From: Alphaproteobacteria bacterium
Lineage (GTDB): Bacteria; Pseudomonadota; Alphaproteobacteria; RF32; CAG-239
Length of the DNA: 64,000 bases
Assembly: GCA_048463395.1 (NCBI GenBank)
Contig: DBFWPL010000019.1
Span: 2,668-66,667, forward strand
Reading direction: 5' to 3'
Below, one piece after another: positions 3,193-21,653 of the stretch (within the stretch, counting starts at the first letter, position 1; each line of letters starts with the position of its first letter). The position numbers were made by a program, and so were the translations under genes. Under the pieces are notes generated by a model. It ran no database searches and had not been told where the DNA came from. It was given only the letters and a program-made list of their open reading frames with translations.

Positions 3193-4155
3193 TTACAAAT
3201 CCGGAAACATATTCATCCCGCGGGATAAGCGGGTCATTTGCGTTTCAATTGACGTCGCCAGATTAAGCTTGCCGCCCTTGATAATGCCGCGGACTTGGTC
3301 GCCTTTGGTGCTGACAGGGTTGGCAAACAGGAAGCTGACAGCCGGTATTTTGTGTTCAAAACCGTGCAGACTCTGGTGTAAAACGCCTAACATACCGCGA
3401 GAAAACAGGTCATAAGCCAACTCTTCGCTCATAGTGGTAGAGGCAGCGTATTTAACCACAGAGTTAATGGCGTCGGTAATATTGTTGGCGTGAATGGTAG
3501 AAAGTACCAGGTGGCCGGAGGTTGCGGCTCTCAAAACTTCGCTGGCCGTTTCCGGCGTACGGATTTCTCCGACCAGAATATATCGAGGTTTGGAACGCAG
3601 GGCGGATTTTAACCCTTCTCCCCAGTTTCCCTGAGGCGGCTGGGTTTGTTTGCATAATCCCAACCCGCCGGCAACGGAGTGATAAACGCCGTCGAGAGGC
3701 ATTTCGGTCGGATCTTCAATCGTGTAAGCAAAACCGCCTTGCAAGGTCAGATATTCTTTTAACAAACTGGAGATAGCTGTGGTTTTTCCGGCTCCGGTCG
3801 GTCCGGCCCAGAGAATAAGGCCGGAAGCCGTTGAAAGCGACAGTAAGTATTGAGCCAATTCCGGCGGAAAGCCCAAAGCTCCGAACGGAGGAACTTTCTT
3901 TGGCATTTTTCGGGCACAATATTGAACGCCATAAATGGACATAGTTCGTTCCACGCGATAGAACACGTCATCATAAAGCAAAGAGTAACTTGGGTTTTGT
4001 TTATCCCAGCCGTTTTCTAAAATCTGATAGAAAATTTCAAAATCTTCGGCAGATAAAACGGCCAGTCCGTTTGCTGTTCTGTTATCGGGAATATAAGCAG
4101 TTCTGTCCGGCGTAATGTAAATATCGGAGAACGGCACATCGTTAATTTTAACCAT
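3193..4155 (-). CDS. PilT/BfpF-like secretion ATPase (short, retraction-type)
   Basis: 320 aa. Walker A GPTGAGKTT, Asp/Walker B ILVGEIR, His box LSTIHAN. Lacks the long N-terminal domain and Zn-tetracysteine of GspE-type ATPases. Confidence 0.7.
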   Translation of the reverse strand: MVKINDVPFSDIYITPDRTAYIPDNRTANGLAVLSAEDFEIFYQILENGWDKQNPSYSLLYDDVFYRVERTMSIYGVQYCARKMPKKVPPFGALGFPPELAQYLLSLSTASGLILWAGPTGAGKTTAISSLLKEYLTLQGGFAYTIEDPTEMPLDGVYHSVAGGLGLCKQTQPPQGNWGEGLKSALRSKPRYILVGEIRTPETASEVLRAATSGHLVLSTIHANNITDAINSVVKYAASTTMSEELAYDLFSRGMLGVLHQSLHGFEHKIPAVSFLFANPVSTKGDQVRGIIKGGKLNLATSIETQMTRLSRGMNMFPDL

Positions 4156-4247
4156 AGAAGCCTCATATGTAAAAGATAATCCTGAGTATAACTTACGCTC
4201 TATGTCTTAAAAAATATTAAAGTTTATAGTAATATCAAAAAAACATT

Positions 4248-5699
4248 TTGATTTTTGGAAAAAATATGTTTAGAAAACTGACTTTTTTGTTGTTATTGAG
4301 TTTGGAACCGGTCTGGTTTCATTTTTGTTTGTTTCCGCAGAACGGATTTTCCGAGCTTTCGGCTTTTATAATCTTTGTGCAGGGAATTGCACTGTTTTTA
4401 TTGCTCTTAACGTTGGAAAAACTTCCCGTTGCCGTGTTTCTCTCGTTAGAAAGCCTGTTTTTTCTGATTTTGATTGCTTATCACAAATATTATGCCGATC
4501 CGCTGAGCTTGTCGGCTATGATTGGACAAATCAACGAGGCGGGAACTTTTGCTGCCAAATCCCCGTTCAGCTTGTTTAACCGGTACAGTGCGATTGTTTT
4601 TGTTCTTTATCTGCTCAAAGTCGGGTTTGTGTGGAAATATTATCAGCCCTTTTCGGATGTGTGGATAATAAGGGGCGGAATAGCAGCTCTTTTGATTCTT
4701 TTTGTTTTCCTGACCCATGGAAATTATGGCCGGCAATGGTTTTCCATTAACGATTTCAAACGTTATGTCCGTGAGTTGGGATATCCGCAAGGGTGGTGGT
4801 ATGAGGCGATGATGGCCTGGGATAAAAGAGCCATGGAGCAGGAAATTTTAAGCAATGCGGCTTTGCCCGAACCGGAACTGAATGATGATTTTAAGCAGAT
4901 TAAACCAACGAAGAACATATTTATCATACAAGTGGAAAGCTTGGATTATGAAGGGGTGTTTAAAAAGATAAACGAAAAGGAGGTTATGCCTTTTCTCAAG
5001 TCTCTTCGGGATAAAAGCTTGTTTTATACCCTGCTTCCGCATGATAAGAAAGCTTCAGCCAATTCTGACTTTACGATGTTGACCGGTACTTCAGTATATG
5101 ACGATACCTATTCGGCAATTTATATGTTGCTGTTACCGTCGGTTTATGAACAAATAGAAACCGTTCCGCAGCTGTTGAAGGAAAAAGGCTGGCATACCGC
5201 TTTTTATCACGGTTATAAAGGGTGGTTTTTCAATCGTGAAGAACACATAAAAGGAATGGGTTTTGACGAGGTGTTTTTTGAAGATACGCTCCCTTTGACA
5301 ACCTCCAAAGGAGAATGGGGCTTTGATGATAAAGACTTGTTTACGCATGTTTTAAAAACACAAACGAATAAAAAGAACTTTAATTTTATGATTACGGTCA
5401 GTTCTCACGAAAGTTTCAACATAGGAACAACGCATAAGACAGTTGTTGCTGAGCCACAAACCTTGGCAGACAAGTATTTTAATGCCTTAAATTATGTGGA
5501 TGAGGCCTTACGGATGTTAGTAGACGGAGCTCCGGAAGATAGTTTGTTTATCATTTATTCCGACCACCACAGCGGCATAACCGAAGACAAAAGAACGGTT
5601 TTTCTGGTTTATGGCAAAAATCAACAGCTTCACCTTGAACGGGAAACGGAATTTAACGGTCTTCCGCCACAGGTAAAAACTTTATTGAGAAGTTTTTAG
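4248..5699 (+). CDS. polytopic membrane protein with alkaline-phosphatase/sulfatase-superfamily domain (LtaS/EptA/PptA-like phosphotransferase)
   Basis: 483 aa. N-terminal region has about 5 TM helices. The C-terminal domain has MLTGTSVYDDTY, SSHESFN and YSDHHSG motifs typical of the sulfatase/phosphoglycerol-transferase family. The table start is a TTG at 4248; an ATG at 4266 is an alternative. Confidence 0.6.
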   Translation: MIFGKNMFRKLTFLLLLSLEPVWFHFCLFPQNGFSELSAFIIFVQGIALFLLLLTLEKLPVAVFLSLESLFFLILIAYHKYYADPLSLSAMIGQINEAGTFAAKSPFSLFNRYSAIVFVLYLLKVGFVWKYYQPFSDVWIIRGGIAALLILFVFLTHGNYGRQWFSINDFKRYVRELGYPQGWWYEAMMAWDKRAMEQEILSNAALPEPELNDDFKQIKPTKNIFIIQVESLDYEGVFKKINEKEVMPFLKSLRDKSLFYTLLPHDKKASANSDFTMLTGTSVYDDTYSAIYMLLLPSVYEQIETVPQLLKEKGWHTAFYHGYKGWFFNREEHIKGMGFDEVFFEDTLPLTTSKGEWGFDDKDLFTHVLKTQTNKKNFNFMITVSSHESFNIGTTHKTVVAEPQTLADKYFNALNYVDEALRMLVDGAPEDSLFIIYSDHHSGITEDKRTVFLVYGKNQQLHLERETEFNGLPPQVKTLLRSF

Positions 5700-5939
5700 G
5701 GATAAAAACACATCATCAGATAAGTCTATATAAAATACAATAATTAAACTTATAATAAAATAAGCCTAAATAAGTTTAATAATCAGTAAAAAATTAAACT
5801 TATTTTCTGGATCTATTGAGGTACTGGAGGCTTATGAACTGTTCAAATTCAGGGGAAGTTCATTCCGTACGGGGTAAGAATAAAAAAAGAACCTCATAAA
5901 GAGGCTCTTTTTGATTGAAGCAATGTAGTCTTTCTTGGA

Positions 5940-6569
5940 TTATTGGTATCTCCAAGAGATAGAACATGTTGGTTGGGTATCACAGTTACAAACAGTAGCA
6001 GCCTGAGACAAAGCAACCGGTAAGTCTGTTGTAACAGTTCCTGTATTATAAGTATAATATGTTGGAACAACCGTGTCTGAGGTAGCAGCAGCATTGCTGA
6101 CGGCCATACCGACCAAACCTGAAGCTGCACCGGTACCCCAGTCAGCCGTTGCAATGGAAACACAAGCTTCTTGGCTCAGGCCGTTATACGTAATTTGAAA
6201 GGCTTTGTTTGCGTAAACTCCAGATCCTGCACCGGCCGCAACGTTACCGGCAGCGGAAGCAATATTAACCTCGCCGTTGAAAGCGTTAACGATTTTGGAT
6301 GCAGAAGAATACATCTCGTTCGGGATAATACCAAAGTTAATGGCAGTTGCGTTAGTCAAACCGCTGTAGTTTCTCTGACCGGAATACAAAGTTCTGATGT
6401 TGGCAACCAACATGGAAACCTGATCCATGGTCTTGTTGATTTTGAACTTGGTCATTGCTTTTGAATAACCGGCGATACCGCCCACGGACAAAACGCCGAT
6501 GATGGCGAGCACGCCCAGCATTTCCACCATTGAACGACCGCTCTGGTCATTTTTATATAAATTTGTCAT
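5940..6569 (-). CDS. type IV (IVb-like) prepilin, paralog 1
   Basis: 209 aa. Leader MTNLYKNDQSG followed by RSMVEMLGVLAIIGVLSVGGIAGY, a hydrophobic N-terminal helix with Glu at +5 after the Gly (class III signal peptide). C-terminal Cys pair CNCDTQPTCSISWRYQ. RBS aggagaggag upstream. Confidence 0.7.
   Translation of the reverse strand: MTNLYKNDQSGRSMVEMLGVLAIIGVLSVGGIAGYSKAMTKFKINKTMDQVSMLVANIRTLYSGQRNYSGLTNATAINFGIIPNEMYSSASKIVNAFNGEVNIASAAGNVAAGAGSGVYANKAFQITYNGLSQEACVSIATADWGTGAASGLVGMAVSNAAATSDTVVPTYYTYNTGTVTTDLPVALSQAATVCNCDTQPTCSISWRYQ
6262..6560. repeat. ~300-bp near-identical direct repeat (copy 1), 5' half of pilin gene
   Basis: The sequence ...gttaacgattttggatgcagaagaatacatctcgttcgggataataccaaagttaat... 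and flanking DNA recur at 7133-7430. The encoded proteins are identical over about 100 residues. Confidence 0.8.
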
Positions 6570-6823
6570 TGCTCCTCTCCTTATAAAATCTTTTGCTAAA
6601 TTCCTTAGCAGTTTGCTTATACCTTAATCATAAAAGATTTATATTTACTTAACAATTCTGTCTTTAGGCATAATTTTATTTTTTTGATTATAACTTTTTG
6701 CATAAGGTCATATATCCAACTTCTGTTTTTTATATAATGAGTTTGTTTATTTTGCAATAAATGTTTTGCATTGGGGAAATCTTGCCTGATACCCGTTTAA
6801 CCCAAATAAATTGTCATGCAAAA

Positions 6824-7438
6824 CTATTGATAACGCCAAACAACGGAACATGACGGGGAGTTTTCACAGGCACATTTGGCGGCCGCTTGCGGCAAAACGA
6901 TAGGTAAATCAGTCTCAGCAGCTTTGTTATAGGTCGTATAGTTAGGCACAGTTGCCGAACTGCTCTCCGAACCGGATAAGTACATTCCCTCCAAACCGGA
7001 GGCGGCACCGCTTCCCCAATCCGCCGTACCTATGGTAACACAGGCCTCACGGCTCAGTCCGTTGTAGACGATTTGGAAGGACCTGTTTGTTTTGGTGCCG
7101 TTAGTGGCATTCAAGCTGTCTGCCGTAGAGATGATAACCTCGCCGTTGAAAGCGTTAACGATTTTGGATGCAGAAGAATACATCTCGTTCGGGATAATAC
7201 CAAAGTTAATAGCAGTTGCGTTAGTCAAACCGCTGTAGTTTCTCTGACCGGAATACAAAGTTCTGATGTTGGCAACCAACATGGAAACCTGATCCATGGT
7301 TTTGTTGATTTTGAATTTGGTCATCGCCTTTGAATAACCGGCGATACCGCCCACGGACAAAACGCCGATGATGGCGAGCACGCCCAGCATTTCCACCATT
7401 GAACGACCGTCTTGATTGTCTCTACACATTCTTTTCAC
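6824..7438 (-). CDS. type IV (IVb-like) prepilin, paralog 2
   Basis: Same leader and N-terminal roughly 105 aa as paralog 1, with a divergent C-terminus ending CACENSPSCSVVWRYQ. A GTG at 7436-7438 with GGAGG 6 nt upstream gives MKRMCRDNQDG + RSMVEML. The ORF track extends further upstream to 7468. Confidence 0.65.
   Translation of the reverse strand: MKRMCRDNQDGRSMVEMLGVLAIIGVLSVGGIAGYSKAMTKFKINKTMDQVSMLVANIRTLYSGQRNYSGLTNATAINFGIIPNEMYSSASKIVNAFNGEVIISTADSLNATNGTKTNRSFQIVYNGLSREACVTIGTADWGSGAASGLEGMYLSGSESSSATVPNYTTYNKAAETDLPIVLPQAAAKCACENSPSCSVVWRYQ
7133..7430. repeat. ~300-bp near-identical direct repeat (copy 2), 5' half of second pilin gene
   Basis: See copy 1. Confidence 0.8.
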
Positions 7439-7533
7439 GTTTAACCTCCAACACCCAAATAACTCCACACTTCCAGATTGAACGATTTTTTATTGTTTTT
7501 CAATTATGTCTTTAGTCATAATCATAAAAAAAC

Positions 7534-8109
7534 TTATTCAAAAGTCCATAATAGAATGTTCTTTTTTCCGCAATGCCTGCCGGCGTCTTCTCCGGTTATC
7601 GGAAGCTTATTTTCTCCCCCCCAAGAGAATACCGTTTGCTGCTTTTCGCTGAGAATTGTAATACTCAAAAGTCCCAAAGACTGGTTTTCGGTGAATTGAA
7701 ATTCCGCCAGTTGTTCACATTCTGTTTTATCTAAATCCGCATAAGCAATATCAAAACTTCTCGCCCCCGGCATAACAATTCCGCCGTCAGCCCCTTGTCC
7801 GACAAGAACCTGCTTTCCTAAAGCATTAAACATCTTCCCGCCGTTCTCAATAAAATACGGCGTGAGATTGTTTTTTAGAACGCTGTCTGTGCTCAACCCC
7901 CAATACCCCGGTCGATTTCGATAAAACTTTCTGATACCCTCCGCAGCGGATATGACTTCTCGGGCTGCCACGGCGATTTTCGGATTTGGACGGGAAAGCC
8001 AAACAATTGTTCCGATTATAATAACTGTTGCAACTAATCCGCTGACGGCAATTTTCAGGTTAATCCGTTGTTTCAAAGTCTTCAGAAGTTTTTTTGCTTT
8101 TTCGAACAT
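7534..8109 (-). CDS. hypothetical bitopic membrane protein in the pilus operon
   Basis: 191 aa. One N-terminal TM (IAVSGLVATVIIIGTIVWL) and a periplasmic remainder. Overlaps the upstream GspF-like gene by 1 nt. No recognisable pilin cleavage motif. Confidence 0.35.
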   Translation of the reverse strand: MFEKAKKLLKTLKQRINLKIAVSGLVATVIIIGTIVWLSRPNPKIAVAAREVISAAEGIRKFYRNRPGYWGLSTDSVLKNNLTPYFIENGGKMFNALGKQVLVGQGADGGIVMPGARSFDIAYADLDKTECEQLAEFQFTENQSLGLLSITILSEKQQTVFSWGGENKLPITGEDAGRHCGKKNILLWTFE

Positions 8110-9242
8110 TAGCCTGCTCCCATGGAACTGGTAATTTGATCTTGCATTTCAAACACGCCCATAACCGCCCAGGCGATAACGCCGCCCACGGAAAGCAAGG
8201 CGGCCATGTTTAAAATAGCCGCTTTTTGCTCAATCATGTAAACGGATTCGTCCAGCCAGTCGTTGGCAAGTTTTTCCAAAGCTTCTTCAAAGTTGTCCAA
8301 TTCCGAATAAATCTTCAGGTCGCTGATAATCTCGGCATCCGGAAAGTCCAATCCCGTTTTTGCCAAAGCCTGCCCCAGGTTATCACCGTTGTTGATGTGC
8401 ACAAGAGTCTCATCAATGCGTTCTTTCAAATAACTGTTTGAATCTCTTCTTAATGCTCTTAACGAGGTTGAAACCGGCGTACCGCTCTTGACCAAGGCGG
8501 AAAGAGCCAATAGCCAGCTGATGCCGGAAAAGACTTTGTACAAAGACCAAGGCGGAATGCTGTCAAAAAAAGCTCTGATTCTTCCCGTCCAAATACCGAT
8601 GGTTCCGTAAATAATAATCATGACAATCGGGAGAGCCGAGAATGCAACAAGCCAGTATTGGGCAATCCAGTCTGATATATCCACCAATGTCTTGGCGGTG
8701 CCTCTCCACCGAACGGTCGGAGCGGCGTCAATCATCGGCGGCACCATGTAAACGCCGATACCGTAAATAATCAAAATCGCCATCATAAACAAAAAGGTCG
8801 GGTAGGTAATGGCTCCGATAATCGGGCGAACCATTTTGGTAGAACCTTCCGTAACACGGATAAGGTTTAACAACGCTCCTTCCAAATCGGAAACGTCGCC
8901 CACGGAAAGCATAAGGCGTTCACGGTTTGGAGCCCAGCCTTTCAGTGCGTCGGAAAACGGGAGACCATTTTGCAAAGCTTTACCCCAGCTGGCAATGGCG
9001 ATTGCCAACGGTTCGCTCGGATTCTTTCCGCCGTTGCTCACACTGTCGTGTAAAAGGTCTAACGCGTCCATTAATGAAAAGCGGTTACGCATCAAAGACG
9101 CCAGCTTACGATAAATTTTCAATCTGGTGTCGTTTGAAAACTGACAAATCATCTTGGCATAATAAACTTCAATCGTATTCAGCTGCCGCATAGCCTTTGC
9201 AAGGGACGCTGTTTGACGCTTTTTTTTCTCTTCTTCAGCCAT
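8109..9242 (-). CDS. GspF/PilC-family inner-membrane platform protein (R64 PilR / BfpE / TcpE-like)
   Basis: 377 aa. Cytoplasmic N-domain followed by three TM helices and a repeated cytoplasmic domain, the typical T2SS_F topology. Confidence 0.75.
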   Translation of the reverse strand: MAEEEKKKRQTASLAKAMRQLNTIEVYYAKMICQFSNDTRLKIYRKLASLMRNRFSLMDALDLLHDSVSNGGKNPSEPLAIAIASWGKALQNGLPFSDALKGWAPNRERLMLSVGDVSDLEGALLNLIRVTEGSTKMVRPIIGAITYPTFLFMMAILIIYGIGVYMVPPMIDAAPTVRWRGTAKTLVDISDWIAQYWLVAFSALPIVMIIIYGTIGIWTGRIRAFFDSIPPWSLYKVFSGISWLLALSALVKSGTPVSTSLRALRRDSNSYLKERIDETLVHINNGDNLGQALAKTGLDFPDAEIISDLKIYSELDNFEEALEKLANDWLDESVYMIEQKAAILNMAALLSVGGVIAWAVMGVFEMQDQITSSMGAG

Positions 9243-9267
9243 TTTTGATTTTGCTCCTTAAAATTAA

Positions 9268-10917
9268 CTAGTAAGCCGGACGTTGATCCAACAGACCGCA
9301 CCAACGTTCAACTTCGTCCAAATCAATATATCCTTTTAACATTCGCTCAATGGCGGCTTCTTTTAAGGTGCGGCCGTTCAAATCGCTTGTCCAGTAGTCA
9401 ATGGCTTTTCTGGTCTCACCCTTAATCATCAGTTCCAAAAACATGGCGTCCGGCAAAATGATTTCCGGCACGCTCATACGTCCTTTAACGCCTCTGTTAT
9501 CGCAGTATTTACATCCCGGACCGCGGACAAACGTGTTTTCCACGCCAAAGTCGCCCAACGCAACGCGAAGCCTTTGCACCGAAGGGTCGTTCAGCTTTTC
9601 TTTTACCGACATTCGGCAGTGAGGGCAAAGTTTACGGAACAAACGTTGTGAAATCAAGCCTTTCATCAACTCAGGGTCAACGAGTTTAAACGGTTCAACG
9701 CCCATGTCGCGGAGACGCATTAAAATTGCCGGAGCAGAGTTGGCGTGCAAAGTGGACCACATTCCGTGTCCGGACAATGCTCCTTGGAAAGTCAATTGGG
9801 CGGCCGCAAGGGCACGAATCTCACCCACCATAATAACGTCCGGGTCGGAACGCAGAGCGGCAGACAAAGCTTTGGTAAACTGTTCGGCCTTTTCTTCTTC
9901 GGTATTGGCGTTGGTAACCGGCATTTGTCTTGCTCCCGGAATAGGATACTCCGGCGGATCTTCCACCGTCAAAAGGTTAAGTTCATAATTTTTCTCCTGC
10001 AACAGCTTAATCATGTTTCTTTGCAGGGTGGTTGATTTTCCCGATCCCGTCGGTCCGGCAATAATATTCAAGCCTACCGGAACTGCCCGCAAGCGGTAAA
10101 ACAGGTTTTCTTCATATTCACCGAAACCCAGAGCCGACAAATCGCCGCTTCCGTCCGGATTGTCATCGGCATATAACAAACGCATAACCAGATATTGCGA
10201 ACCGAAGGCAATCGGGTTAAATTGCAGACGAATAGCCAACACGTTGTGCGGCAGCATTAATTTTCCTTTGGAACCTCTCAGCGGAGTGGAACCAAGCTTT
10301 TGGGCTCCCTGAAACTCGTTTTGGGCATAGTTTGCGTCTGAAATATCCGCGGAGGCAAATGCAGCACGGACAAAGGATTCCCCCCATTCCTTATTATATT
10401 CCATTTCCGTTTGCATCATACCGTTGACGCGAAACATAATCTGGGTACTGTCGGCAACGACAATGTGAATATCGGACACTTTTTGCGAGGCGGCTCTGGC
10501 AACCACGTTGACAAAGTCCTTCTGCATTTGCAGCTGGTCAAGGTCGGCATCATTCTCTACAACGGCTTGATTACGTTCGCCATATGCATAAATAGCATTC
10601 AGCTCGTTTTGAGAAACATATTTTGGCTTGAGTAAGTTTAACTTTTTCTTACGAACCAGAACTTCAAAGCTTAAGACGCGTCCGTCAAACTTATGCGTTT
10701 CCGAAACCAGGTATTGTCCGTCGGAAAACAAGGCGACAAGACGCCTGGTATCGTCATTGATGACTAATGAGGAACCCGGAAGAGTTAATAAACGATTACC
10801 GTTTCCGAAATATCCTTCAAACAGGTTTTGCGGCTTTTTTTCTTCATCCCCGCTTTCTGCTAAATCCGGATTTTTTTCTTTCTCTTCTGCAACATTATTT
10901 TTTTCTTCGTCAGCCAT
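9268..10917 (-). CDS. GspE/PilB-family assembly ATPase (R64 PilQ / BfpD / TcpT-like)
   Basis: 549 aa. Walker A GPTGSGKSTT, DVIMVGEIR, His box STLHAN, and Zn tetracysteine CPHC...CKYC. Confidence 0.85.
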   Translation of the reverse strand: MADEEKNNVAEEKEKNPDLAESGDEEKKPQNLFEGYFGNGNRLLTLPGSSLVINDDTRRLVALFSDGQYLVSETHKFDGRVLSFEVLVRKKKLNLLKPKYVSQNELNAIYAYGERNQAVVENDADLDQLQMQKDFVNVVARAASQKVSDIHIVVADSTQIMFRVNGMMQTEMEYNKEWGESFVRAAFASADISDANYAQNEFQGAQKLGSTPLRGSKGKLMLPHNVLAIRLQFNPIAFGSQYLVMRLLYADDNPDGSGDLSALGFGEYEENLFYRLRAVPVGLNIIAGPTGSGKSTTLQRNMIKLLQEKNYELNLLTVEDPPEYPIPGARQMPVTNANTEEEKAEQFTKALSAALRSDPDVIMVGEIRALAAAQLTFQGALSGHGMWSTLHANSAPAILMRLRDMGVEPFKLVDPELMKGLISQRLFRKLCPHCRMSVKEKLNDPSVQRLRVALGDFGVENTFVRGPGCKYCDNRGVKGRMSVPEIILPDAMFLELMIKGETRKAIDYWTSDLNGRTLKEAAIERMLKGYIDLDEVERWCGLLDQRPAY

Positions 10918-10925
10918 TTGCCGAA

Positions 10926-12332
10926 TTACCTAACAAACATGCCTTTTCCGAGGCTGGGGATACCGTCTGATACTTGTAAGTTGCTCCCCTCTTCAGAAGC
11001 GTCGGCTTTTTTGTCTTTGTCTTTTTTAACGGCAGGTTTCTTTGCCGGTTCTTTTTCAAGAATACCGCCGGCTGCAAAATACAGATAATCTTTCACACCG
11101 TTCTTTTCAGCCCTGACGTATGTTTGTGTAATTTCATCTACAACATGACCGCTTTGTAAAGATGTTCCCTTGCGGACAAGGAATGAATCTCCGCCTTTGT
11201 TAATCAATTTGGCTGCCAATGCGTCGCCTTTGCCAATAATTTCCATAACGGCATATTCTTCAGGAAGCTTGATAACGACTTCTTCCTCAACCGGTTTGGC
11301 AGCCTCTTCCGTTGCAGCTTGTGCAAACGGATTGGCTTTGCTGTTTTCTTTCTCGGCTCTTTCGGCTTCCAAACGGGCTTTCAAGATGGAAATCTGAGTT
11401 TGCAGATTGGCAATTTCCCGATTATAATTTGTTCGGGCGGTTTCTGCGTCTTTACTGGTTTTTGCGGCTAAAGTCGCAAGATAATTTACTTTTTTCTTAA
11501 AGTCGTTAATTTGGTTTTCTTTTTCTTCTTCGACTTTGGATAATTCGTCATAGATACCTTCGTTGTTTTTAATCCACTCTTGTGTGGAAGCCAGCATACT
11601 TTCTTTATAGGCATTCAGAATTTTTTCCTGACGAAGTTTTTCCAATGCCAGAGAAATTTCCTTAAGCTTTTGTTTTTCTTGCAAAAGCTTTCTTTCCTGC
11701 TCTTTTTCCCATTCTAATTTTTTCCGCTCTTTTTCTTCTTCTTTGGTTTTAACCTCGTCAATGGCTTTTTGACGTTGGGCTTTGATGGCCTCAATTTCAT
11801 TTCTGATTTTTTCACGTCTTAGTTCCAAAGTTAGCAGAGCGGTCTGTTTTTCCAAATCAGACATTTGGGAAAACAGCTCGTTGTCGATTTGATTTAAGAG
11901 AATGTCTCCTGATGTGTCGATGGCCGATATGTTACGGGATGTTGCGGAAATGCCTTCCTGCAACTCATCGTCCTGGTCAGCAGGAGCCGGTAAAGAAATA
12001 GGGGCACTATCCGCAGGTTCCATCTCCGGCATAACCGGAGTATTGGCTTCAAAATCTGTTTGCGGAGAAGGAAATTGTCCGCCCGGATTAATCAAATCGT
12101 CAGACGGTTCCGTTGTCGCGTCATCTTCGCTGTTATTTGTTTCAAACAAAGCAATTTCATCCGGAATTGAGCTGTCAACCCCCAGAAAATTATCATTATC
12201 TTCATTGCTGAGTTGAGGAGCCTCGTCAGCCAAGGTAACGGTTCCTTGTGCATAAGCGGCTTGTCCGGCGGCTAATCCCCAGACAAAAGCAATTGCCGTT
12301 GAGCACAAAATCTTTCTTAAATTATAAAACAT
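10926..12332 (-). CDS. secreted acidic/coiled-coil pilus biogenesis protein
   Basis: 468 aa. Signal peptide (AIAFVWGLAAGQAAYAQG). An acidic disordered stretch is followed by a long E/K/R-rich coiled coil and a small C-terminal domain. Sits between the ATPase and PilO-like genes. Confidence 0.45.
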   Translation of the reverse strand: MFYNLRKILCSTAIAFVWGLAAGQAAYAQGTVTLADEAPQLSNEDNDNFLGVDSSIPDEIALFETNNSEDDATTEPSDDLINPGGQFPSPQTDFEANTPVMPEMEPADSAPISLPAPADQDDELQEGISATSRNISAIDTSGDILLNQIDNELFSQMSDLEKQTALLTLELRREKIRNEIEAIKAQRQKAIDEVKTKEEEKERKKLEWEKEQERKLLQEKQKLKEISLALEKLRQEKILNAYKESMLASTQEWIKNNEGIYDELSKVEEEKENQINDFKKKVNYLATLAAKTSKDAETARTNYNREIANLQTQISILKARLEAERAEKENSKANPFAQAATEEAAKPVEEEVVIKLPEEYAVMEIIGKGDALAAKLINKGGDSFLVRKGTSLQSGHVVDEITQTYVRAEKNGVKDYLYFAAGGILEKEPAKKPAVKKDKDKKADASEEGSNLQVSDGIPSLGKGMFVR

Positions 12333-13599
12333 AGATCGCTCCCTCGTAATCCCACATATCGTTACTGACGTTATAATTAATCATATTAATGGTAAGTCCT
12401 GAAAATTTTGTTAATAAATCCATCCATACCAGAGGATTATGGCTGGATGAAAACTTGAATTGTACAGAACTATATACATTATTCTGCGGAGAAACGTATG
12501 AAAAACTGCTCAAAACCACTTTTTGCCCGATGGCTTGAAACAAATCATTAAGTAAAACTTTTAAATCCTCGTCGCTTTTCATCGGCGGAGAAGAAATGAT
12601 TTCCACTTTTCCCAACGGAACAGAAGCAATAATGTTGTCTCCATTGTCAGAAACCGAACGACTGGAAAAAATCAGTCCGGAATCATCTAAGGCCTTGTTA
12701 ATCCAAGAAACACGGCCGATTTCCCTTTTCCAAGATGTTGTGATGCCTTCCGGCGTGCAAGTCAGATTGTTAATAGTCCATCCCGGCGGCAGAATTTTTT
12801 TCAAAGCCTCAATGCCGTAATAGCACCATTTTATAACATCGTTCGGGCGGTTAACCTTCTCCCAAGGTTTAATTTCCGGCGGCTCTTCAACCTGCTTGAC
12901 AACTTTCGGCGGAATTGGAGCTATAATCGGCCTTTTCGGCGGAGCCAGAAAAATTCCGTTGATAATACTGGATAACAGCCACAAGCCGATAATTGCCGAA
13001 ATAACAACAACGATTAAGAGCTTAGTGCCTCGTAACGCCTTAATCTTTTGCAGCTTGGCTCTCAGGCCTTTATTTAATAATTGTGTAAGATCAGGATATT
13101 CCGTTTCTTCAATGCCCCATTCAGGCGGAGCAATTTTTCTGCCCCAGTCCGGAACGGCCAACATCGACATGAACTGTTCTTTGGCTTCCTGTTCGGACAA
13201 AAACAGCATATCGCCGTCAGACAAAATGATGTCGTTACGAATACAGGTATACCACCATCCGTTGTCGACTTTGAATACGGCAACAAAAGAAGAACGGTCT
13301 GAAAGGGCTGTGGCTAATGTTACGGCAGCAACATTGTCGCCCTTTTTATAACCTTCACCGGAAACACAGATACCGAATTGAGGGGCTTTCCCCGGTTTGA
13401 TACAGAATAAATCGGCACCTTCCAGAATACCTTCGGAAGCTTCTTCCACCTCGTTAAACGGATCATCCTTGTTTTGCAGAGGCTGCCAGAACAAGCTGGT
13501 TGCGTAAGATACGCCGGCAACGGTAATATTCGTTCCCCAGGAACGCTGCTTACCTCCGTTTTCGTAATCTTCATCTAATAACTTTGCTTCTTCCAGCAC
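12322..13599 (-). CDS. PilO-like (IncI thin-pilus type) bitopic pilus assembly protein
   Basis: 425 aa. Cytoplasmic N-domain, a central TM (LLIVVVISAIIGLWLLSSIINGIFL) and a periplasmic C-domain. Size and position match R64 PilO and BfpC. Confidence 0.4.
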   Translation of the reverse strand: MLEEAKLLDEDYENGGKQRSWGTNITVAGVSYATSLFWQPLQNKDDPFNEVEEASEGILEGADLFCIKPGKAPQFGICVSGEGYKKGDNVAAVTLATALSDRSSFVAVFKVDNGWWYTCIRNDIILSDGDMLFLSEQEAKEQFMSMLAVPDWGRKIAPPEWGIEETEYPDLTQLLNKGLRAKLQKIKALRGTKLLIVVVISAIIGLWLLSSIINGIFLAPPKRPIIAPIPPKVVKQVEEPPEIKPWEKVNRPNDVIKWCYYGIEALKKILPPGWTINNLTCTPEGITTSWKREIGRVSWINKALDDSGLIFSSRSVSDNGDNIIASVPLGKVEIISSPPMKSDEDLKVLLNDLFQAIGQKVVLSSFSYVSPQNNVYSSVQFKFSSSHNPLVWMDLLTKFSGLTINMINYNVSNDMWDYEGAIYVL

Positions 13600-13614
13600 C
13601 GTTTTATCCTTTTC

Positions 13615-15231
13615 TTAAAACTGATCTTTCATTCTGGATTCCGGTGTTAAAGGTGAATCCAAAACAACCGGAGTTAAGATAATGACCAGAATATTTCTTG
13701 TTTTGTCGGCAGTTGCCGTACCGCCGAACAAAGAGTTTTCTGCTGACCCGACCCCTGTTTTTTCAGCTTTGTTCTCAACACGTTCATAACCTGTCAAGAC
13801 CAAAGATTCTCCGGATTTTAACGCAACTTCCTGCGTAAAGCCGCGAGATTCGATAACCGGGTTTTGGATGTATTGTCCGTCTGACCCTTCACCGCTGCCG
13901 CCTAAGTCAACTCTTTCAAGTTGAAGCAGGTCAGACAAAGTCAGGTTGAACATTAACAACATGCGTCCGTGTTCCAAAATACGCGGCAGAATATCCATTG
14001 TGAAACCGGTTTCGATTTCTTCGGTCTCTGTTGAGATATCATAGTAGCTGGCATCACCGCCGCTGTTGGTCTTGGTAATTTCAGAAATATAGTTTTGTTT
14101 TCTGACAACCTGAATAGGAGCCGGTTTGTTATTCAAAGTAGTAACCGTACCGCTGGTAATCAAATTGGTTGTTCCTTGTGTGGACAAGGCCTGAATGGCT
14201 CCGTCAACAGTCCAGTCTCCGGACAAGACCTTCATGCTTAAATTGTTGGTTACATCAGTCCCCAATCCCGGAACACTGGCAATTGTACCGGAAAGTTTAT
14301 TTTTATCATCAAAGATAGCGGAAAGATTTAAACCATATTGGTCGCTGTCTTCAATATTGACCTGCAGAACTTTGACGCTGATGGCAACTTGTCTGGACAA
14401 ACGGGCATTTTGTTCATTAATGAACTTTGCCACTTTTCTGATGTCATTCGGTGTCGCTGTCAATGAAATTGTTCCGTTTGCCGGATCCAAAGTCAGTTTG
14501 GCATCCTTGGAAATCATTGATGTAATGGATTTTTCAATATTTCCCCATAACTCAATGGAAATGGAGCTGGACAAACCGATAGAGGAGGTGCCCTCGCTTC
14601 CTGATGACGAGCCGCCGACATTGACGTTCAATGTTGGCTTTGTCGGCAGAGAGTAAAGGACAAACGTTCTGGTAATATACTTATAAAAATATATTTCTTT
14701 CTTTTCATAAGACCACCAAATGCCGAAACGGGATGAAATTTCATCCAACAAACCGCTTAAAGGCCCTTGATAAGAAACCAGCATTTTGCTTGGTTCCGTC
14801 CAGTCTGAATTAATCGTTTCCGGATTAGGCTTGTTAGACGCCGCAGTTTTGAAGGCATCTTCTTCAAGCTGAGGAGAAAATCTGATTTTCAAAGAAGTGA
14901 TTTTATTAATCATATCGCCGATTTCATACAAAGTAATCGGACGGTTGCTGATTAAGGTAATGCCGTCTTTCCCTTCAAGGTAAGAAGGCAAAGGCTCTCC
15001 TTCATACTCAATCTCGCTGGTATCGCCCAGCCAGATATCATTTTTTACCCGCACAACATCGTCTGAGGAGGGTTTTGTCGGGATTTTTGCGGCTTCTTTG
15101 AGCTGTGTTGCAGCTTCTACTTCCCGCTCAATTGTTGCGTCCAAACTGGTAGACAGGGAACAAGAGGCGATTAACGCTGCAAGTGCTGCTCCTAAACTAC
15201 ATTTTGCCCAATTATTCATATGCATTCTCAT
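13615..15231 (-). CDS. lipoprotein secretin (R64 PilN / BfpB / TcpC class)
   Basis: 538 aa. Lipobox IASC in the signal peptide. C-terminal secretin signature ...SLFGGTATADKTRNILVIILTPVVLDS. Confidence 0.75.
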   Translation of the reverse strand: MRMHMNNWAKCSLGAALAALIASCSLSTSLDATIEREVEAATQLKEAAKIPTKPSSDDVVRVKNDIWLGDTSEIEYEGEPLPSYLEGKDGITLISNRPITLYEIGDMINKITSLKIRFSPQLEEDAFKTAASNKPNPETINSDWTEPSKMLVSYQGPLSGLLDEISSRFGIWWSYEKKEIYFYKYITRTFVLYSLPTKPTLNVNVGGSSSGSEGTSSIGLSSSISIELWGNIEKSITSMISKDAKLTLDPANGTISLTATPNDIRKVAKFINEQNARLSRQVAISVKVLQVNIEDSDQYGLNLSAIFDDKNKLSGTIASVPGLGTDVTNNLSMKVLSGDWTVDGAIQALSTQGTTNLITSGTVTTLNNKPAPIQVVRKQNYISEITKTNSGGDASYYDISTETEEIETGFTMDILPRILEHGRMLLMFNLTLSDLLQLERVDLGGSGEGSDGQYIQNPVIESRGFTQEVALKSGESLVLTGYERVENKAEKTGVGSAENSLFGGTATADKTRNILVIILTPVVLDSPLTPESRMKDQF

Positions 15232-15862
15232 CCTCCATTGTCTCTACGACCAAGACGCGGTTTCCTTTATAAAATGTTGCGATCGGAGCCGGACGTGCTC
15301 TGGCAAAAGCTCTGATAAGAGCAGAACTTACATCCGCAAAACGTCCTCTGAACATTGCTCCGGCGGTTAGAGTATAATTTCTGTTACTTTTCCAAATCAG
15401 TCTCCAGCCGGCTCTTTCGCTCCATTCCGTCAGCAATGTTTTAAGAGACTGTCCTTCTTCTGCCAGCCAGTCTTCAACAGGATCTTCGGCGGAATAGCTG
15501 TCGCCGCTGTTACCGTTTCCGTTGTTTTCGGTAATTTTGATTTCCTCTTCGTAATCGACCACCTCGTCTTCAATGGCCGGAGGGATGGAAGACGACATAT
15601 TGCTTCCGGCTCCGGATTGAACAATATTTTGATCGCGGGGAGATCTTTCTCCGTATTCTTTATAATCGGCGGCAACTCTTGTGTAATTTACAAAATCACG
15701 ACCGGATGATGTATCCGCATCAAAACTTCCGCTTTGACAACTCGCGTCGGGACAAGGAACATTATCCGGCAGCTCATCCATTGGCTCAGCCATGGAGCCG
15801 GCACAGGCGGCAGTCAAAAACAATCCGAAAAAACAAGAGACTAGTCTTATTTTTGAGTCCAT
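15212..15862 (-). CDS. lipoprotein, pilus-associated (PilL/TcpQ-like position)
   Basis: The internal Met gives MDSKIRLVSCFFGLFLTAACAGS (lipobox LTAAC). The ORF track extends to 15907. Overlaps the secretin gene start. Confidence 0.45.
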   Translation of the reverse strand: MDSKIRLVSCFFGLFLTAACAGSMAEPMDELPDNVPCPDASCQSGSFDADTSSGRDFVNYTRVAADYKEYGERSPRDQNIVQSGAGSNMSSSIPPAIEDEVVDYEEEIKITENNGNGNSGDSYSAEDPVEDWLAEEGQSLKTLLTEWSERAGWRLIWKSNRNYTLTAGAMFRGRFADVSSALIRAFARARPAPIATFYKGNRVLVVETMEDENAYE

Positions 15863-15957
15863 ATTTATAATCCCTAAGCTGTATTTTGTCATATTTTTAC
15901 CTATCATACATATTGAAAATTAAATAATCAAGCACGACACTTCAGTTATTACCAAGG

Positions 15958-17709
15958 TTACCATTGCTGGTAATATTGTTGTATGCTGCGGTTATTTTCT
16001 TCTGTGCTCCTGTTAAAGTTGTTATTGATTCTTACGGTTCGTATAATAAATGAATTAGGTTCCCGGGTTGTGAATACAGTATTGATTTTGCTGTATTCTA
16101 CACCCTTATTGGTTAATATATTATGTAAAAGATTCAGTCTTTTCTGCTGTAAAGCGAAAGAGCTTGTTCCGTCGATGCGAATTTCCAGTCCGATAGATGA
16201 ATCTTCCAGGGTTTTGTTTGCAAAGGCCTGTATCCATTTCAGTGTTTGTCCCGATATTTCGGCTCGGTTAGGCTGGAATGAGAGCCTGATTTCCGTTGGC
16301 AGAATTTTTTGGGATGAACTGAATTTTTTTATTCTTCCCGATATCCGGTTGAAGAAATTGTCTTCTGCTTCGTCATCTTGGATATTGGCATTCTCCTTTG
16401 TGCTCTGCTCGGTTTTTTGAGCATCGTTTCCTGAGAAGATGGAAGTAATGCTTTTCAAGAAGCTGCTGGTTTTGGGAATAATGGTTGCAGGAGGTTCTTT
16501 TCCTTCAACTTTGATTTGATTTTGAGGAGCTTCTTTACTTTCGATAACTTCTTTTTCAAGATTGGCTTTTTCCTCCGAATTTGGAGAAACCAGTTGAGGA
16601 GTAAGATTTTCGTCATTGAGAATGTCTTCGGGGATAGGAATGAGGATATTTTTAACCATTCCTGAATCTGCCAGCAAGATTTCGTCTTCTTGCGATGAAA
16701 ATGGTGCGGAAGTTCTCAGAGCCTGCTGAATATTTTCTTTTTCTCCGTTTTTGTAGTACTCTTGGTCTAAAACACTGTTGTTTTTAGGATGCTTTGTTCC
16801 TTTCGCAACAACCCATGGCTCATTCGAGTTATTTTTTTCTTCCATAGTTGTCCAATTCGGGGTTTGTTGAGAATTGTCCCCCTCTGTTTTGACGGAGGAA
16901 GCAATCATGCTTTTAATCGGAATGTTTTTTTCGGCCAAAGCAAGCTGGTTCTGATCCGGAGAATTGATGATTTCTATTTTTTTGTTTGCTTTTGCTGTCG
17001 TTCCGTCCCTTTCTATCGGAATAAGCAAATCCGAAGAGCTTTCTTCTTTTGGTTGGGATGAATGTATCTCTTTGACCGGAATTAAGTTATTTGGCGTTCG
17101 GGCTTCTGCCACAAGAAACGCCTCGCCGTCTCCGGCTTGTTCCGGAAGTAAATCTGCCGGAGATTTATCGGTGATCTCCGGTTTTTCAGTCTCAAAAGGA
17201 AGAATGTTCAGCTCAGTCTCGTCTTTGGCAATGATAATTTCCGATTCATCAACGGGAGGGGTATTGTTGATGATTTTATCAAAGTTTTCGACGATTTTCT
17301 GAGGCTTCTGCTTTAGCCGGGGATCTATTTCCAGAGGGATAAACGAAATTTCCCTCAGATTTTTATCATTTTGAACTTGAGGGTTCTCGTCGGCGTCAGC
17401 TGAAGTCGATGAACCGGTTGTTTCTTCCCCGCTTCCGAAAGTTAAAGGAATGTCTTCTTGCAAAGAAAACCGAGAGGTTGAGTTTTTTTTCGGAAGGGTT
17501 AATGCAACTTTCTTCACCGGAATGACTTTTGACGAAGCGGTGCTTTTTAGCTCGTTTTTCAAGAAAAGGGTAATGTTTTTGTTTGAAATTTTAAGTTCGT
17601 CTGTACGAATGGAGCGGTTACGAAGATATACTCCGTTTACCGTAAAAATTGTAAACAGAGAAAAAACAAAGCTGCAAACAAACGTTTTTAAACTTGTCTT
17701 TTTCATCAA
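15958..17709 (-). CDS. large low-complexity membrane-anchored protein, first gene of pilus operon
   Basis: 583 aa. N-terminal hydrophobic segment. A long S/E/N/K/P-rich disordered region. A roughly 120-aa C-terminal folded domain (IRLSFQPNRAEISGQTLKWIQAFANK...). Confidence 0.4.
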   Translation of the reverse strand: MMKKTSLKTFVCSFVFSLFTIFTVNGVYLRNRSIRTDELKISNKNITLFLKNELKSTASSKVIPVKKVALTLPKKNSTSRFSLQEDIPLTFGSGEETTGSSTSADADENPQVQNDKNLREISFIPLEIDPRLKQKPQKIVENFDKIINNTPPVDESEIIIAKDETELNILPFETEKPEITDKSPADLLPEQAGDGEAFLVAEARTPNNLIPVKEIHSSQPKEESSSDLLIPIERDGTTAKANKKIEIINSPDQNQLALAEKNIPIKSMIASSVKTEGDNSQQTPNWTTMEEKNNSNEPWVVAKGTKHPKNNSVLDQEYYKNGEKENIQQALRTSAPFSSQEDEILLADSGMVKNILIPIPEDILNDENLTPQLVSPNSEEKANLEKEVIESKEAPQNQIKVEGKEPPATIIPKTSSFLKSITSIFSGNDAQKTEQSTKENANIQDDEAEDNFFNRISGRIKKFSSSQKILPTEIRLSFQPNRAEISGQTLKWIQAFANKTLEDSSIGLEIRIDGTSSFALQQKRLNLLHNILTNKGVEYSKINTVFTTREPNSFIIRTVRINNNFNRSTEENNRSIQQYYQQW

Positions 17710-18029
17710 AAATCAAAACCCCTCTAAACCCTTGATAATTCAATATGCGACTCTTGGCAAGAAGATATAAAATTATGCACAAAATTTGTGGATTCTTTTT
17801 TAGATATGATTCTGTTTTATTAGAGAAATATTTACTATTGGAGGTGTAAGAATAAGGGTGTTTATACTTCTTTAATAACTGTGAATTTTTTGTTACAGGG
17901 AAAAATATTATTGTAAATCAGATTGTTATCTGTTTTTTAGGAGAGAGAATATTGCTGGTAAAAAAGTTAAAAATTAGCTATCCTAAAAGAGTATAAGAAG
18001 TTTTGCTAAATTAATTAAGGAGAAAGATT

Positions 18030-18374
18030 ATGCAATTTTTGAAGAAAAATATTTGGACACTGAGCTGCATGGTGCTCATTTTGGCGATGGCTTTTGTAGG
18101 CGATGCATCCGCTGCCGCAGACGGTAACACTTTGATGGATACTGCCAAAACCAAAGCTAAAAGCGTGTTCACATCCGTTAAAACCATCATCTTCATTGTC
18201 GGTGGTTTCGGTTTGGTAGGTTTGGCTTGGGCCGCTATTTTCGGTAAAGTAAACTGGAAATGGTTTGCATCTTTGGCCGTTGGTCTGGCTATTTTGGCTG
18301 CTGCCGGTTCAATCGTTGAATACGCAACAGGTTCAAGAGATGCAGGTCTTGAAACTACATTCGGTGATATCTAG
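18030..18374 (+). CDS. VirB2/TrbC-family T4SS pilin, paralog a
   Basis: 114 aa. Signal peptide (AMAFVGDASA) followed by a two-TM hairpin IIFIVGGFGLVGLAWAAIFGKVNWKWFASLAVGLAILAAAGS. Strong RBS aggagaaag. Confidence 0.7.
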   Translation: MQFLKKNIWTLSCMVLILAMAFVGDASAAADGNTLMDTAKTKAKSVFTSVKTIIFIVGGFGLVGLAWAAIFGKVNWKWFASLAVGLAILAAAGSIVEYATGSRDAGLETTFGDI

Positions 18375-18417
18375 TCTTATGCCGAATAGGAAAGCATAAT
18401 TATAAAGGGAGGAAAAA

Positions 18418-18891
18418 ATGGAAAATTTAAATAAAAATAGACCACAATTCCTCCCTTTTGTTTGTCTGCTGAAAAAAGCAATAAATGTTATAGATGAAAA
18501 GGACTGTAGGATGTTGTGCGTAAAATTAAAGAACTTCCTGATGATGGCTGTTGTGATGTTCGTGGTTTCTTCAGTTTTATTTGCAACAGATTCATATGCG
18601 GATAGCGGGGATAACGGATTGTTTTCCGATTTAATCGCCAAGGGAGGAAGTATCTTCTCCGGTATGCGTGAAATTATCTATGCTGTTGCCGGCTTCGGTA
18701 TCTCAGCGGTTGCAATCGGTGGTTTCTTTGGAAACTTAAACTGGAAATGGCTTGTGGCTATAGCCCTTGGTTTGTTTGTCATTGCCACGACCGGCGTGAT
18801 TATTAACTACATGGTTGGTGAACAAACCATTACGGATTCAATGATTACGGATACGTTAATCAGCGGTGACTCAACCGGCATAAAAAAATAA
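18418..18891 (+). CDS. VirB2/TrbC-family T4SS pilin, paralog b
   Basis: Same core hairpin (IIYAVAGFGISAVAIGGFFGNLNWKWLVAIALGLFVIATTG). The true start may be the internal Met preceding LKNFLMMAVVMFVVSSVLFA. Confidence 0.6.
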   Translation: MENLNKNRPQFLPFVCLLKKAINVIDEKDCRMLCVKLKNFLMMAVVMFVVSSVLFATDSYADSGDNGLFSDLIAKGGSIFSGMREIIYAVAGFGISAVAIGGFFGNLNWKWLVAIALGLFVIATTGVIINYMVGEQTITDSMITDTLISGDSTGIKK

Positions 18892-18931
18892 TAAACGACT
18901 TTAAATGTTTAGGACTGATAGGGAGGGTGCT

Positions 18932-21484: not shown

Positions 21485-21525
21485 AGTAATGGTTGGCTAA
21501 TCCTCTTTAACCACTCATTAACCAA

Positions 21526-21566
21526 AACAGAGTATACTTTACAATAAGGTATACTCTGTTTTTTTG
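21526..21566 (+). terminator. rho-independent terminator after the VirB2 block
   Basis: cagagtatac-(tttacaataag)-gtatactctg followed by ttttttt. Confidence 0.7.
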
Positions 21567-21653
21567 TATGCGGAAAGTGAATAAAATATGCTTTCCCTTG
21601 CATATAAAAAACAACTGCCATAGAATCAAAATGAACATAAAGGGATTGGGCGT

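Follow-up and report, generated by a model that had tools for sequence, protein, structure and literature searches.

Organization of the pilus locus

We analyzed a 64,000-nucleotide stretch of DNA (hereafter the window) from an alphaproteobacterium of the GTDB lineage RF32/CAG-239 (GenBank assembly GCA_048463395.1, contig DBFWPL010000019.1, positions 2,668 to 66,667 of the forward strand), in which a type IVb pilus cluster directly abuts a type IV secretion system (T4SS). Ten minus-strand genes, tightly spaced or overlapping, run from 17706 to 5940. As far as the first pilin gene, neighboring coding sequences overlap or are separated by no more than 65 nt, and the ten genes are predicted to form one operon, for which a terminator-like hairpin marks the likely end. 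A gene list and order for this strand had been proposed from the open reading frames (ORFs) in the original prediction; profile hidden Markov models and structural evidence now place each of these genes as follows.

15958–17706, minus strand: first operon gene, 582-amino-acid (aa) protein with a predicted OmpA-like C-terminal domain (gene call from the source contig)
15212–15892, minus strand: TcpQ/BfpG-like lipoprotein, 226 aa (Pfam TcpQ, PF10671, E = 1.1e-16, residues 146–222)
13615–15225, minus strand: PilN/BfpB-family type IVb lipoprotein secretin, 536 aa (TIGR02520)
12322–13599, minus strand: PilO2/BfpC-like bitopic inner-membrane protein, 425 aa (PAP_PilO, PF06864)
10926–12332, minus strand: PilP-like periplasmic protein, 468 aa (TIGR03021)
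9268–10917, minus strand: BfpD-like extension ATPase, 549 aa (T2SSE, E = 8.7e-66)
8109–9242, minus strand: GspF/BfpE-type inner-membrane platform, 377 aa (T2SSF, E = 1.2e-26, in two stretches)
7534–8109, minus strand: non-canonical type IVb pilin-fold protein, 191 aa (PilS 25.5 bits, Bundlin 21.3 bits)
6824–7438, minus strand: major-pilin paralogue 1, 204 aa (source-contig call; PilS E = 8.9e-16, Bundlin E = 6.3e-12)
5940–6569, minus strand: major-pilin paralogue 2, 209 aa, last operon gene (PilS E = 2.1e-15, Bundlin E = 2.1e-12)
5884–5912, minus strand: terminator-like hairpin, a 12-pair stem followed by a T-run, 28 nt past the pilin stop codon
4266–5699, plus strand: LtaS/sulfatase-superfamily polytopic membrane protein, 477 aa (Pfam Sulfatase, E = 2.7e-25; PDB LtaS, E = 5.6e-16)
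3193–4155, minus strand: BfpF/PilT-like ATPase, 320 aa (T2SSE, E = 8.1e-29; best NCBIfam model pilT_fam)

Family matches to PilN, BfpD, PilO2/BfpC, PilP and PilS/Bundlin securely assign the cluster to the type IVb pilus assembly systems, in line with the original prediction. Its gene order does mirror both the N-O-P-Q-R-S order of plasmid R64 and the G-B-C-U-D-E order of the bfp operon, and is constant in all 86 related loci that we compared. These loci were taken with 10-kb flanks, and the linkage counts given below are limited to loci with enough flank.

The outer-membrane module and a putative peptidoglycan anchor

The secretin scores 286.4 bits with the PilN model TIGR02520, 1.2 bits under the equivalog cutoff of 287.65. 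The same protein reaches 125 bits with MshL and 44 bits with GspD (cutoff 351), and PilQ lies far below PilN. Its only PDB sequence match is BfpB (9u5s, E = 7.8e-53), to which it is 29% identical, and all 16 homologues compared retain the lipobox cysteine (Cys24, after the residues LIAS). The TcpQ-like gene immediately precedes the secretin gene and overlaps it; the TcpQ-like product shares 48% identity with a Bosea TcpQ-family protein and 34% with BfpG over the domain. Read by eye, the segment LFLTAAC in this protein fits a lipobox, and the TcpQ/BfpG-like lipoprotein is the probable partner of the secretin.

The first operon gene, originally described as a large ORF, is present, and its description can be amended. 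Its 582-aa product has no sequence match in Pfam, NCBIfam or the PDB. It is bitopic, with an N-terminal membrane anchor, a long, poorly conserved and probably disordered periplasmic linker, and a conserved C-terminal domain. Across 20 homologues the ∼110 residues at the C terminus hardly vary, and the C-terminal core is modeled by AlphaFold2 (AF2) with a predicted local distance difference test score (pLDDT) above 90. When this domain was compared with the PDB using Foldseek, the top matches were OprF-C (5u1h, E = 5e-7), MotB-C and Pal. As modeled, it is probably an OmpA/Pal/MotB-like domain that binds peptidoglycan.

The inner-membrane module and two ATPases

The PilO2/BfpC-like protein matches PF06864 over its full length (38.9 bits, cutoff 26.7, E = 6.5e-10), and its cytoplasmic, actin-like N-domain matches BfpC (3vhj, E = 5.4e-6). 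BfpC and PilO2 belong to one fold and family (PMC3984277). The PilP-like protein consists of a signal peptide, an acidic region, a long coiled coil and a C-terminal PilP domain (TIGR03021 pilP_fam, 38.1 bits, cutoff 34.65, residues 305–406).

The extension ATPase has BfpD as its best PDB match (8dze, E = 2.2e-97, full length; GspE, 1e-48), and the bit scores in this comparison are 330 for BfpD, 169 for GspE and 147 for PilB. With an IncI-like Thalassospira plasmid and enteropathogenic Escherichia coli (EPEC) bfp plasmids as references, the ATPase is 37–39% identical to its Bosea, Methylorubrum and EPEC homologues and 30% identical to the Thalassospira one; the corresponding values for the platform protein are 32–35% with BfpE and the Bosea homologue and 26% with the IncI-like PilR of Thalassospira. 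At E < 1e-60 the ATPase matches only 53 plasmids, which come from Bosea, Methylorubrum, E. coli (bfp-type), Burkholderia and a few other sources; IncI1 plasmids are absent from this set, and R64 (AP005147) is not part of the collection used.

A PilT-like ATPase gene had been predicted nearby and is indeed found 1.8 kb downstream of the operon in its own transcription unit, with the plus-strand LtaS/sulfatase-like gene intervening. Full-length alignments relate the 320-aa protein to BfpF and to the second ATPase of Bosea (32–35% identity; E ∼1e-41 for BfpF), and its top PDB matches are PilT (E = 1e-20). It is the probable retraction motor of the cluster, and would represent a retraction ATPase of the Bfp type. 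This gene and the cluster are linked in 47 of 67 loci.

The components do not match a type II secretion system (T2SS) or competence pseudopilus better than a type IVb pilus, a possibility that had been raised as a challenge to the assignment. To the score gaps given above for the secretin (PilN 286 versus GspD 44 bits) and for the extension ATPase in the PDB comparison can be added that the latter reaches 227 bits with the GspE model, which has a cutoff of 630, and that the GspE, GspF and ComGA/ComGB models match the ATPase and the platform only below threshold. No GspC/L/M or pseudopilin G–K set was found in the window, and PilO2/BfpC, PilP, TcpQ and PilS/Bundlin are specific to type IVb pili. 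These score gaps, together with the absence of the specific parts, exclude the T2SS and competence readings.

Two short-leader pilins and a third pilin-fold protein

The platform gene was predicted to be followed by a small membrane protein and two pilins. The two pilins stand, and the small membrane protein emerges as a third member of the type IVb pilin fold. This 191-aa protein reaches the PilS gathering score only narrowly. In an alignment of 73 homologues its N-terminal anchor helix is variable and lacks a conserved Gly(−1) or Glu(+5); the periplasmic domain is conserved and includes a conserved Cys pair. The only PDB structures matched by its AF2 model (pLDDT 81.6) are type IVb pilins, in the order S. 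Typhi PilS (3fhu, E = 1.7e-5), CofA and TcpA. It is probably an uncleaved, membrane-retained pilin-like component. We also considered an assignment as R64 PilM, which no family match supports.

The major-pilin paralogues, the only canonical prepilins in the window, are 72% identical, their N-terminal ∼100 aa being identical; a 288-nt stretch common to both genes has 96% DNA identity. Both proteins score above the cutoffs for PF08805 and PF05307 and have the fold and size of type IVb pilins. Paralogue 1 contains the prepilin motif QDG/RSMVEML (the slash separates positions −1 and +1), and paralogue 2 has an 11-aa leader, MTNLYKNDQSG/R, with bundlin as its best PDB match (1zwt, E = 2.8e-8), followed by TcpA. 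Across 82 unique pilins the class III signal is almost invariant (Q-S-G/R-S-M-V-E-M-L-G-V-L-A-I-I-G-V-L-S), with Arg at +1 and Glu at +5. The leaders, mostly 10–11 aa and in some cases 6 aa long, fall short of the ∼15–30 aa of type IVb leaders. Such a short leader together with Arg(+1) is unusual for a type IVb pilin. The mature proteins span 160–209 aa, with Cys125 and Cys183 98–100% conserved, and conservation declines from 0.97 at the N terminus to ∼0.4–0.6 in the C-terminal two-thirds.

One, two or three tandem pilin paralogues are found in 25, 22 and 8 loci, respectively (including L001, L009 and L098–L109). Their 5′ halves are near-identical and their 3′ halves have diverged, an arrangement that could allow recombination-based pilin variation. 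The regions upstream of the two pilin genes in the window are duplicated as well (6633–6674 and 7481–7522), which suggests that each copy may have its own start region.

Several parts known from related systems were not found. The window contains no A24 prepilin peptidase detectable by Pfam (Peptidase_A24) scans of its ORFs or by tblastn with four A24 peptidases, as the original prediction had noted. Family scans of the window, and tblastn of the window and the 86 loci, revealed no Bfp-type lytic transglycosylase. No PilV-type adhesin or recombinase was matched in the window, no inverted-repeat shufflon was found between 3000 and 8200, and family models detected no PilL or PilM member in the window. 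Homologues of BfpH, BfpI/J/K and BfpL were likewise not returned by tblastn or Pfam, and the full bfp set is thus not present.

Chromosomal setting in a gut lineage

Relatives of the secretin are encoded by 264 GTDB species representatives, of which 80 were retrieved. Among these 80, secretin identity is 65–95%; nearly all are metagenome-assembled genomes labeled Alphaproteobacteria, “Azospirillum sp.” or Candidatus Scatocola, from human, chicken, mouse, rabbit, deer and rumen samples. Gut metagenomes hold hundreds of close secretin relatives. The cluster is present in most of the ∼80 species representatives in conserved chromosomal synteny, and the flanking genes (phosphoribosyltransferase (PRT), AhpC/redoxin, VWA, PP2C and protein kinase) are chromosomal and shared by many species. 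Homologues of the 582-aa protein, one of which is indexed in 961 blocks of a public assembly collection, are carried on contigs of up to 1.86 Mb, a size that hints at small genomes in these Alphaproteobacteria.

The G+C (GC) content of the pilus region is similar to that of its surroundings, with no compositional island. ARAGORN detected no tRNA in the window, no direct-repeat boundary was found, and an Rfam scan of the window returned no RNA family. Because the whole region has no megablast match in the plasmid collection, it is not a known plasmid segment. Sequence context places the cluster on the chromosome of an uncultured lineage of gut Alphaproteobacteria. We found no relevant literature on pili or secretion in this lineage (RF32, Scatocola, CAG-239).

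The neighboring T4SS and its link to the pilus

The pilus operon and the T4SS are transcribed divergently from a short intergenic region.

17710–18029, between the divergent genes: pilus/T4SS intergenic region, 320 bp (29 orthologous regions aligned)
18030–24366, plus strand: start of the T4SS, with two VirB2/TrbC pilins (TrbC, E = 3.2e-10 and 8.8e-5), an 859-aa ORF, a 96-aa ORF and VirB4 (CagE_TrbE_VirB, E = 1e-9)

T4SS genes occupy 18030–47310 on the plus strand and 55874–62985 on the minus strand. Besides VirB2 and VirB4, the plus strand encodes two VirB8 proteins, a CagX/VirB9 protein with a SPOR domain, and VirB11. The system further includes a 1286-aa protein with beta-flower and RHS repeats, a 1475-aa protein in which beta-flower repeats are fused to TrbI/VirB10, and family-less ORFs of 809, 628 and 1680 aa. 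Several TrbL/VirB6-like proteins follow on the minus strand, one of which (1260 aa) contains M23-peptidase and VgrG3-C-like (lysozyme-like) domains. This inventory agrees with the VirB-type assignment made originally, and the encoded system is much enlarged and non-conjugative-looking. Among the T4SS-side ORFs of the window no relaxase, VirD4/TraG coupling protein or integrase was detected, also when the unassigned ORFs were re-scanned at Pfam E ≤ 1, and precomputed Pfam annotation contains no recognizable gene in the 3.7 kb beyond the right end of the window.

A divergent VirB2 gene precedes the pilus operon in 66 of 69 loci, and 60 of 65 have VirB4 on the divergent side. Divergence of PilQ and of VirB4 from the window copies is correlated across loci (Spearman 0.78). 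Two blocks in the intergenic region, at 17878–17898 (CTGTAACAAAAAATTCACAGT) and 17734–17761 (CTTGCCAAGAGTCGCATATTGAATTATC), are nearly identical across 29 species and single-copy in the window, with 0 expected by chance. The former is partly palindromic and contains a CTGT-N12-ACAG-type element; the latter is promoter-like and lies just upstream of the pilus operon. We regard the two blocks as candidate shared operator and promoter elements. A scan for sigma-70 promoters, with 32 sites versus 24 expected, was uninformative. This conserved, co-diverging and divergently promoted pairing favors a functional link with the T4SS, and from it we infer that pilus and T4SS may be co-regulated and functionally coupled.

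Other features of the window

The LtaS/sulfatase-like gene is convergent with the pilin genes and separates the operon from the PilT-like gene. Only 7 of the 86 related loci have such a gene in this place, and local GC content is low (0.38); whether it belongs to the pilus system is uncertain. Neisseria PptA provides an analogy for phospho-form addition, and by this analogy the target of the LtaS/sulfatase-like protein could be the pilin or the envelope. The interval that separates this gene from the convergent pilin genes contains, at 5720–5803, two AT-rich palindromic 34-nt repeats (ATAAGT...AATTAAACTTAT), with a weaker third copy at 7504–7537, which may be bidirectional terminators or a small repeat family.

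On the T4SS side, the 859-aa ORF (18905–21484, plus strand), located between the VirB2b and the VirB3-like and VirB4 genes, is hypervariable: a recognizable homologue occurs in only 6 of 86 related loci, and elsewhere the gene at this position encodes 378, 782 or 1180–1212 aa. Its product might be located at the surface or tip and subject to diversifying selection. A small ORF at 55414–55842 (plus strand), beside the gene for the 1260-aa protein, has a weak match to the lysozyme inhibitor LprI (22.8 bits, cutoff 22), and the pair looks like an enzyme-with-inhibitor arrangement. A double-HTH_3 protein is encoded at 54234–55208. At the left end, a PP2C phosphatase and a VWA protein (500–1925, minus strand) form a small signaling cluster with a Ser/Thr protein kinase encoded beyond the window, and this cluster is syntenic beside the pilus region in many species.

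Comparison with known type IVb pili

The bundle-forming pilus Bfp (EPEC, EPEC adherence factor (EAF) plasmid, bfpA-L) shares the core order G-B-C-U-D-E with the cluster and provides the closest characterized relatives of most core parts (BfpD, BfpB, BfpC, BfpE, BfpG, BfpF and bundlin). It is encoded on a virulence plasmid, whereas the present cluster is chromosomal in Alphaproteobacteria, and it has the BfpP peptidase, BfpH, BfpI/J/K and BfpL, none of which were found in the window. The pilin gene leads the bfp operon; here, the pilins follow the platform gene. The 468-aa coiled-coil PilP-like protein takes the place of the small BfpU, the OmpA-like anchor and the uncleaved 191-aa pilin-fold protein are additional, and the pilin leader of ∼11 aa with Arg(+1) is unlike that of Bfp.

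The PilN2-O2-P2-Q2-R2-S2 core of Burkholderia pseudomallei Tfp7 and Pseudomonas aeruginosa PAPI-1 has the same order as well. Tfp7 is chromosomal, has TcpQ in place of PilL and a separate PilT2 ATPase gene, and lacks pilU2 (PMC3984277). PAPI-1 (pilL2-pilM2) also lacks pilU2, and the chromosomal PilD cleaves its PilS2 (PMC3984277). The Bosea plasmid pBSY19_1 has the layout seen here: TcpQ, secretin, PilO2, an unnamed protein, ATPase, platform and second ATPase. Identity to these relatives is only 24–38%, and the PilV2 adhesin and PilM2 were not found in our cluster. PAPI-1 is an integrative conjugative element whose transfer uses a type IVb pilus related to that of R64 (PMC5297154). It is mobile, and its pilus serves conjugation, whereas the partner here is a VirB/Cag-like T4SS without detectable conjugation genes. 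The T4SSs of PAPI-1 and SPI-7 are not of the Dot/Icm type. A pilus paired with a non-Dot/Icm T4SS, as put forward originally, is found here; with PAPI-1 as a precedent, the pairing is less new than had been implied.

In the IncI1/R64 thin pilus (pilI-pilV), lipoprotein secretin, PilO, PilP, PilQ, PilR and a PilS-family pilin follow in the same order, and the pilus is also physically paired with a T4SS, which is of the I-type (Dot/Icm-like), unlike the VirB-type system in the window, for which no relaxase was detected. PilV, the shufflon, Rci, the PilU peptidase, the PilT transglycosylase, PilL and PilM of R64 were not found. The Tcp and CFA/III-Longus pili of Vibrio cholerae and enterotoxigenic E. 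coli resemble the cluster in having a TcpQ-domain partner next to the secretin, and TcpA and CofA are structural matches for the pilins and for the 191-aa protein. Their leaders of 25–30 aa, the TcpB/CofB minor pilin and the in-cluster TcpJ/CofP peptidase have no counterpart here, and Tcp and Cof are not known to have a retraction ATPase.

Discussion

A chromosomal pilus cluster that accompanies a VirB-type T4SS in dozens of species looks like a fixed cell-contact apparatus. The conserved arrangement, and a T4SS without detectable conjugation genes, lead us to infer a role in docking and retraction. Our preferred reading, to which we assign a probability of about 0.6, is that of a fixed Bfp-like pilus that docks the T4SS onto a target cell, rather than of a plasmid mating pilus. 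By homology and predicted fold, the BfpD-like ATPase would polymerize pilin through the secretin and the PilT-like ATPase would retract the fiber, the 582-aa OmpA-like protein would tie the machine to peptidoglycan, and the uncleaved 191-aa protein would stay in the inner membrane as filament primer or base. Prepilin processing would depend on a peptidase gene at another site in the genome, as is the case for PAPI-1 and Burkholderia Tfp7. The pilus would then attach to a target cell, bacterial or host, and its retraction may bring about the contact needed by the T4SS.

The principal alternative, which we judge rather unlikely, is an autonomous colonization or aggregation pilus in the manner of Bfp, Tcp and Longus, which would form microcolonies or adhere to mucus, epithelium or microbes, and whose position beside the T4SS would reflect shared regulation or history instead of mechanical cooperation. 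The closest characterized relatives do belong to an adherence and aggregation pilus, Bfp; variable C-terminal pilin halves in one to three tandem paralogues are what one would expect of an exposed adhesive fiber; and the three loci with no divergent VirB2 upstream show that the link is breakable. A merely historical adjacency is harder to reconcile with a divergent arrangement retained in 66 of 69 loci despite secretin differences of up to ∼35%, with the correlated divergence of PilQ and VirB4, and with the conserved shared intergenic elements. The original prediction had drawn an analogy with liquid mating in IncI plasmids, and a conjugative thin pilus of the R64 or PAPI-1 kind, stabilizing mating pairs for DNA transfer by the adjacent T4SS from within an integrated mobile element, would fit the R64-like gene order and the presence of PilO2 and PilP, which characterize the R64 variant. 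Type IVb pili serve conjugation in R64 and PAPI-1 (PMC5297154), and the Bosea and Thalassospira plasmid relatives lie beside replication or transfer-type genes, with PilV present in Bosea. Against this stand the lack of any detected relaxase, VirD4/TraG, integrase, PilV or shufflon recombinase in the 64 kb, the conserved housekeeping flanks and chromosomal synteny without compositional island, tRNA or direct-repeat boundary, and motor proteins that group with those of Bfp and of alphaproteobacterial or Burkholderia-type clusters, with an ATPase nearer to BfpD than to IncI1 PilQ and no IncI1 plasmid at E < 1e-60. As all conjugation- or mobile-element-specific features tested are absent from the window, liquid mating is not supported, and we consider it very improbable.

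Several observations weigh against a pilus that docks the T4SS. Only three kinds of evidence speak for functional coupling, namely that the two gene sets stay adjacent, that they diverge in step and that motifs between them are conserved. The flanking PRT gene does not follow PilQ (rho −0.35) or VirB4 (−0.59; n = 21–24) in its divergence; strictly vertical descent of block and flanks together is not established. The PilT-like gene is unlinked in 20 of 67 loci, and an adhesin-type minor pilin comparable to PilV, TcpB or CofB was not recognized. In about one-third of the related clusters the flank contains no canonical major pilin, and orphan pilin genes with the leader G/RSM(V/I)EML occur in unrelated housekeeping contexts (L129, L148, L149, L155, L170 and L172), away from any pilus assembly gene, matching the third of clusters that have no linked major pilin. 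The tblastn search with four A24 peptidases found none in the 86 loci with their flanks either, and pilin maturation is therefore assumed. Neither this peptidase nor a Bfp-type lytic transglycosylase was found by tblastn in 78 further pilin loci, and no peptidase lies beside the orphan pilins on metagenome contigs retrieved with the pilin N terminus as query. Clusters without pilins, orphan pilins and the lack of a linked peptidase together indicate that the lineage has partly scattered its genes for pilins and peptidase.

The component families, the pairing of a type IVb pilus with a T4SS (R64, PAPI-1) and clusters without a peptidase are already known. New is the combination of a Bfp-like motor in R64-like order with a predicted OmpA-like anchor, a probably uncleaved pilin-fold protein, short-leader, Arg(+1), variable tandem pilins and a lineage-wide chromosomal pairing with a giant, non-conjugative-looking T4SS. 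We found no literature on this combination of pilus and T4SS. The uncleaved pilin fold, the OmpA-like anchor, the short leader with Arg(+1), the variable tandem pilins and the unlinked peptidase are testable departures from the textbook system.

What is known of type IVb pili comes mainly from enteric pathogens, where they serve virulence, and from IncI plasmids and PAPI-1-type islands, where they serve mating. In the present case, a Bfp-like machine is conserved on the chromosome of a widespread uncultured clade of gut Alphaproteobacteria. If pilus and T4SS cooperate, they would provide a non-conjugative example of a pilus-assisted T4SS and a clue to how these unstudied commensals make cell contact. 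More tentatively, and with some doubt on our part, pilus and giant T4SS could constitute one lineage-defining “grapple-and-inject” organelle that delivers effectors to host or prey, which would imply a contact-dependent lifestyle, be it epibiotic, predatory or host-manipulating, for a clade common in the human and animal gut.

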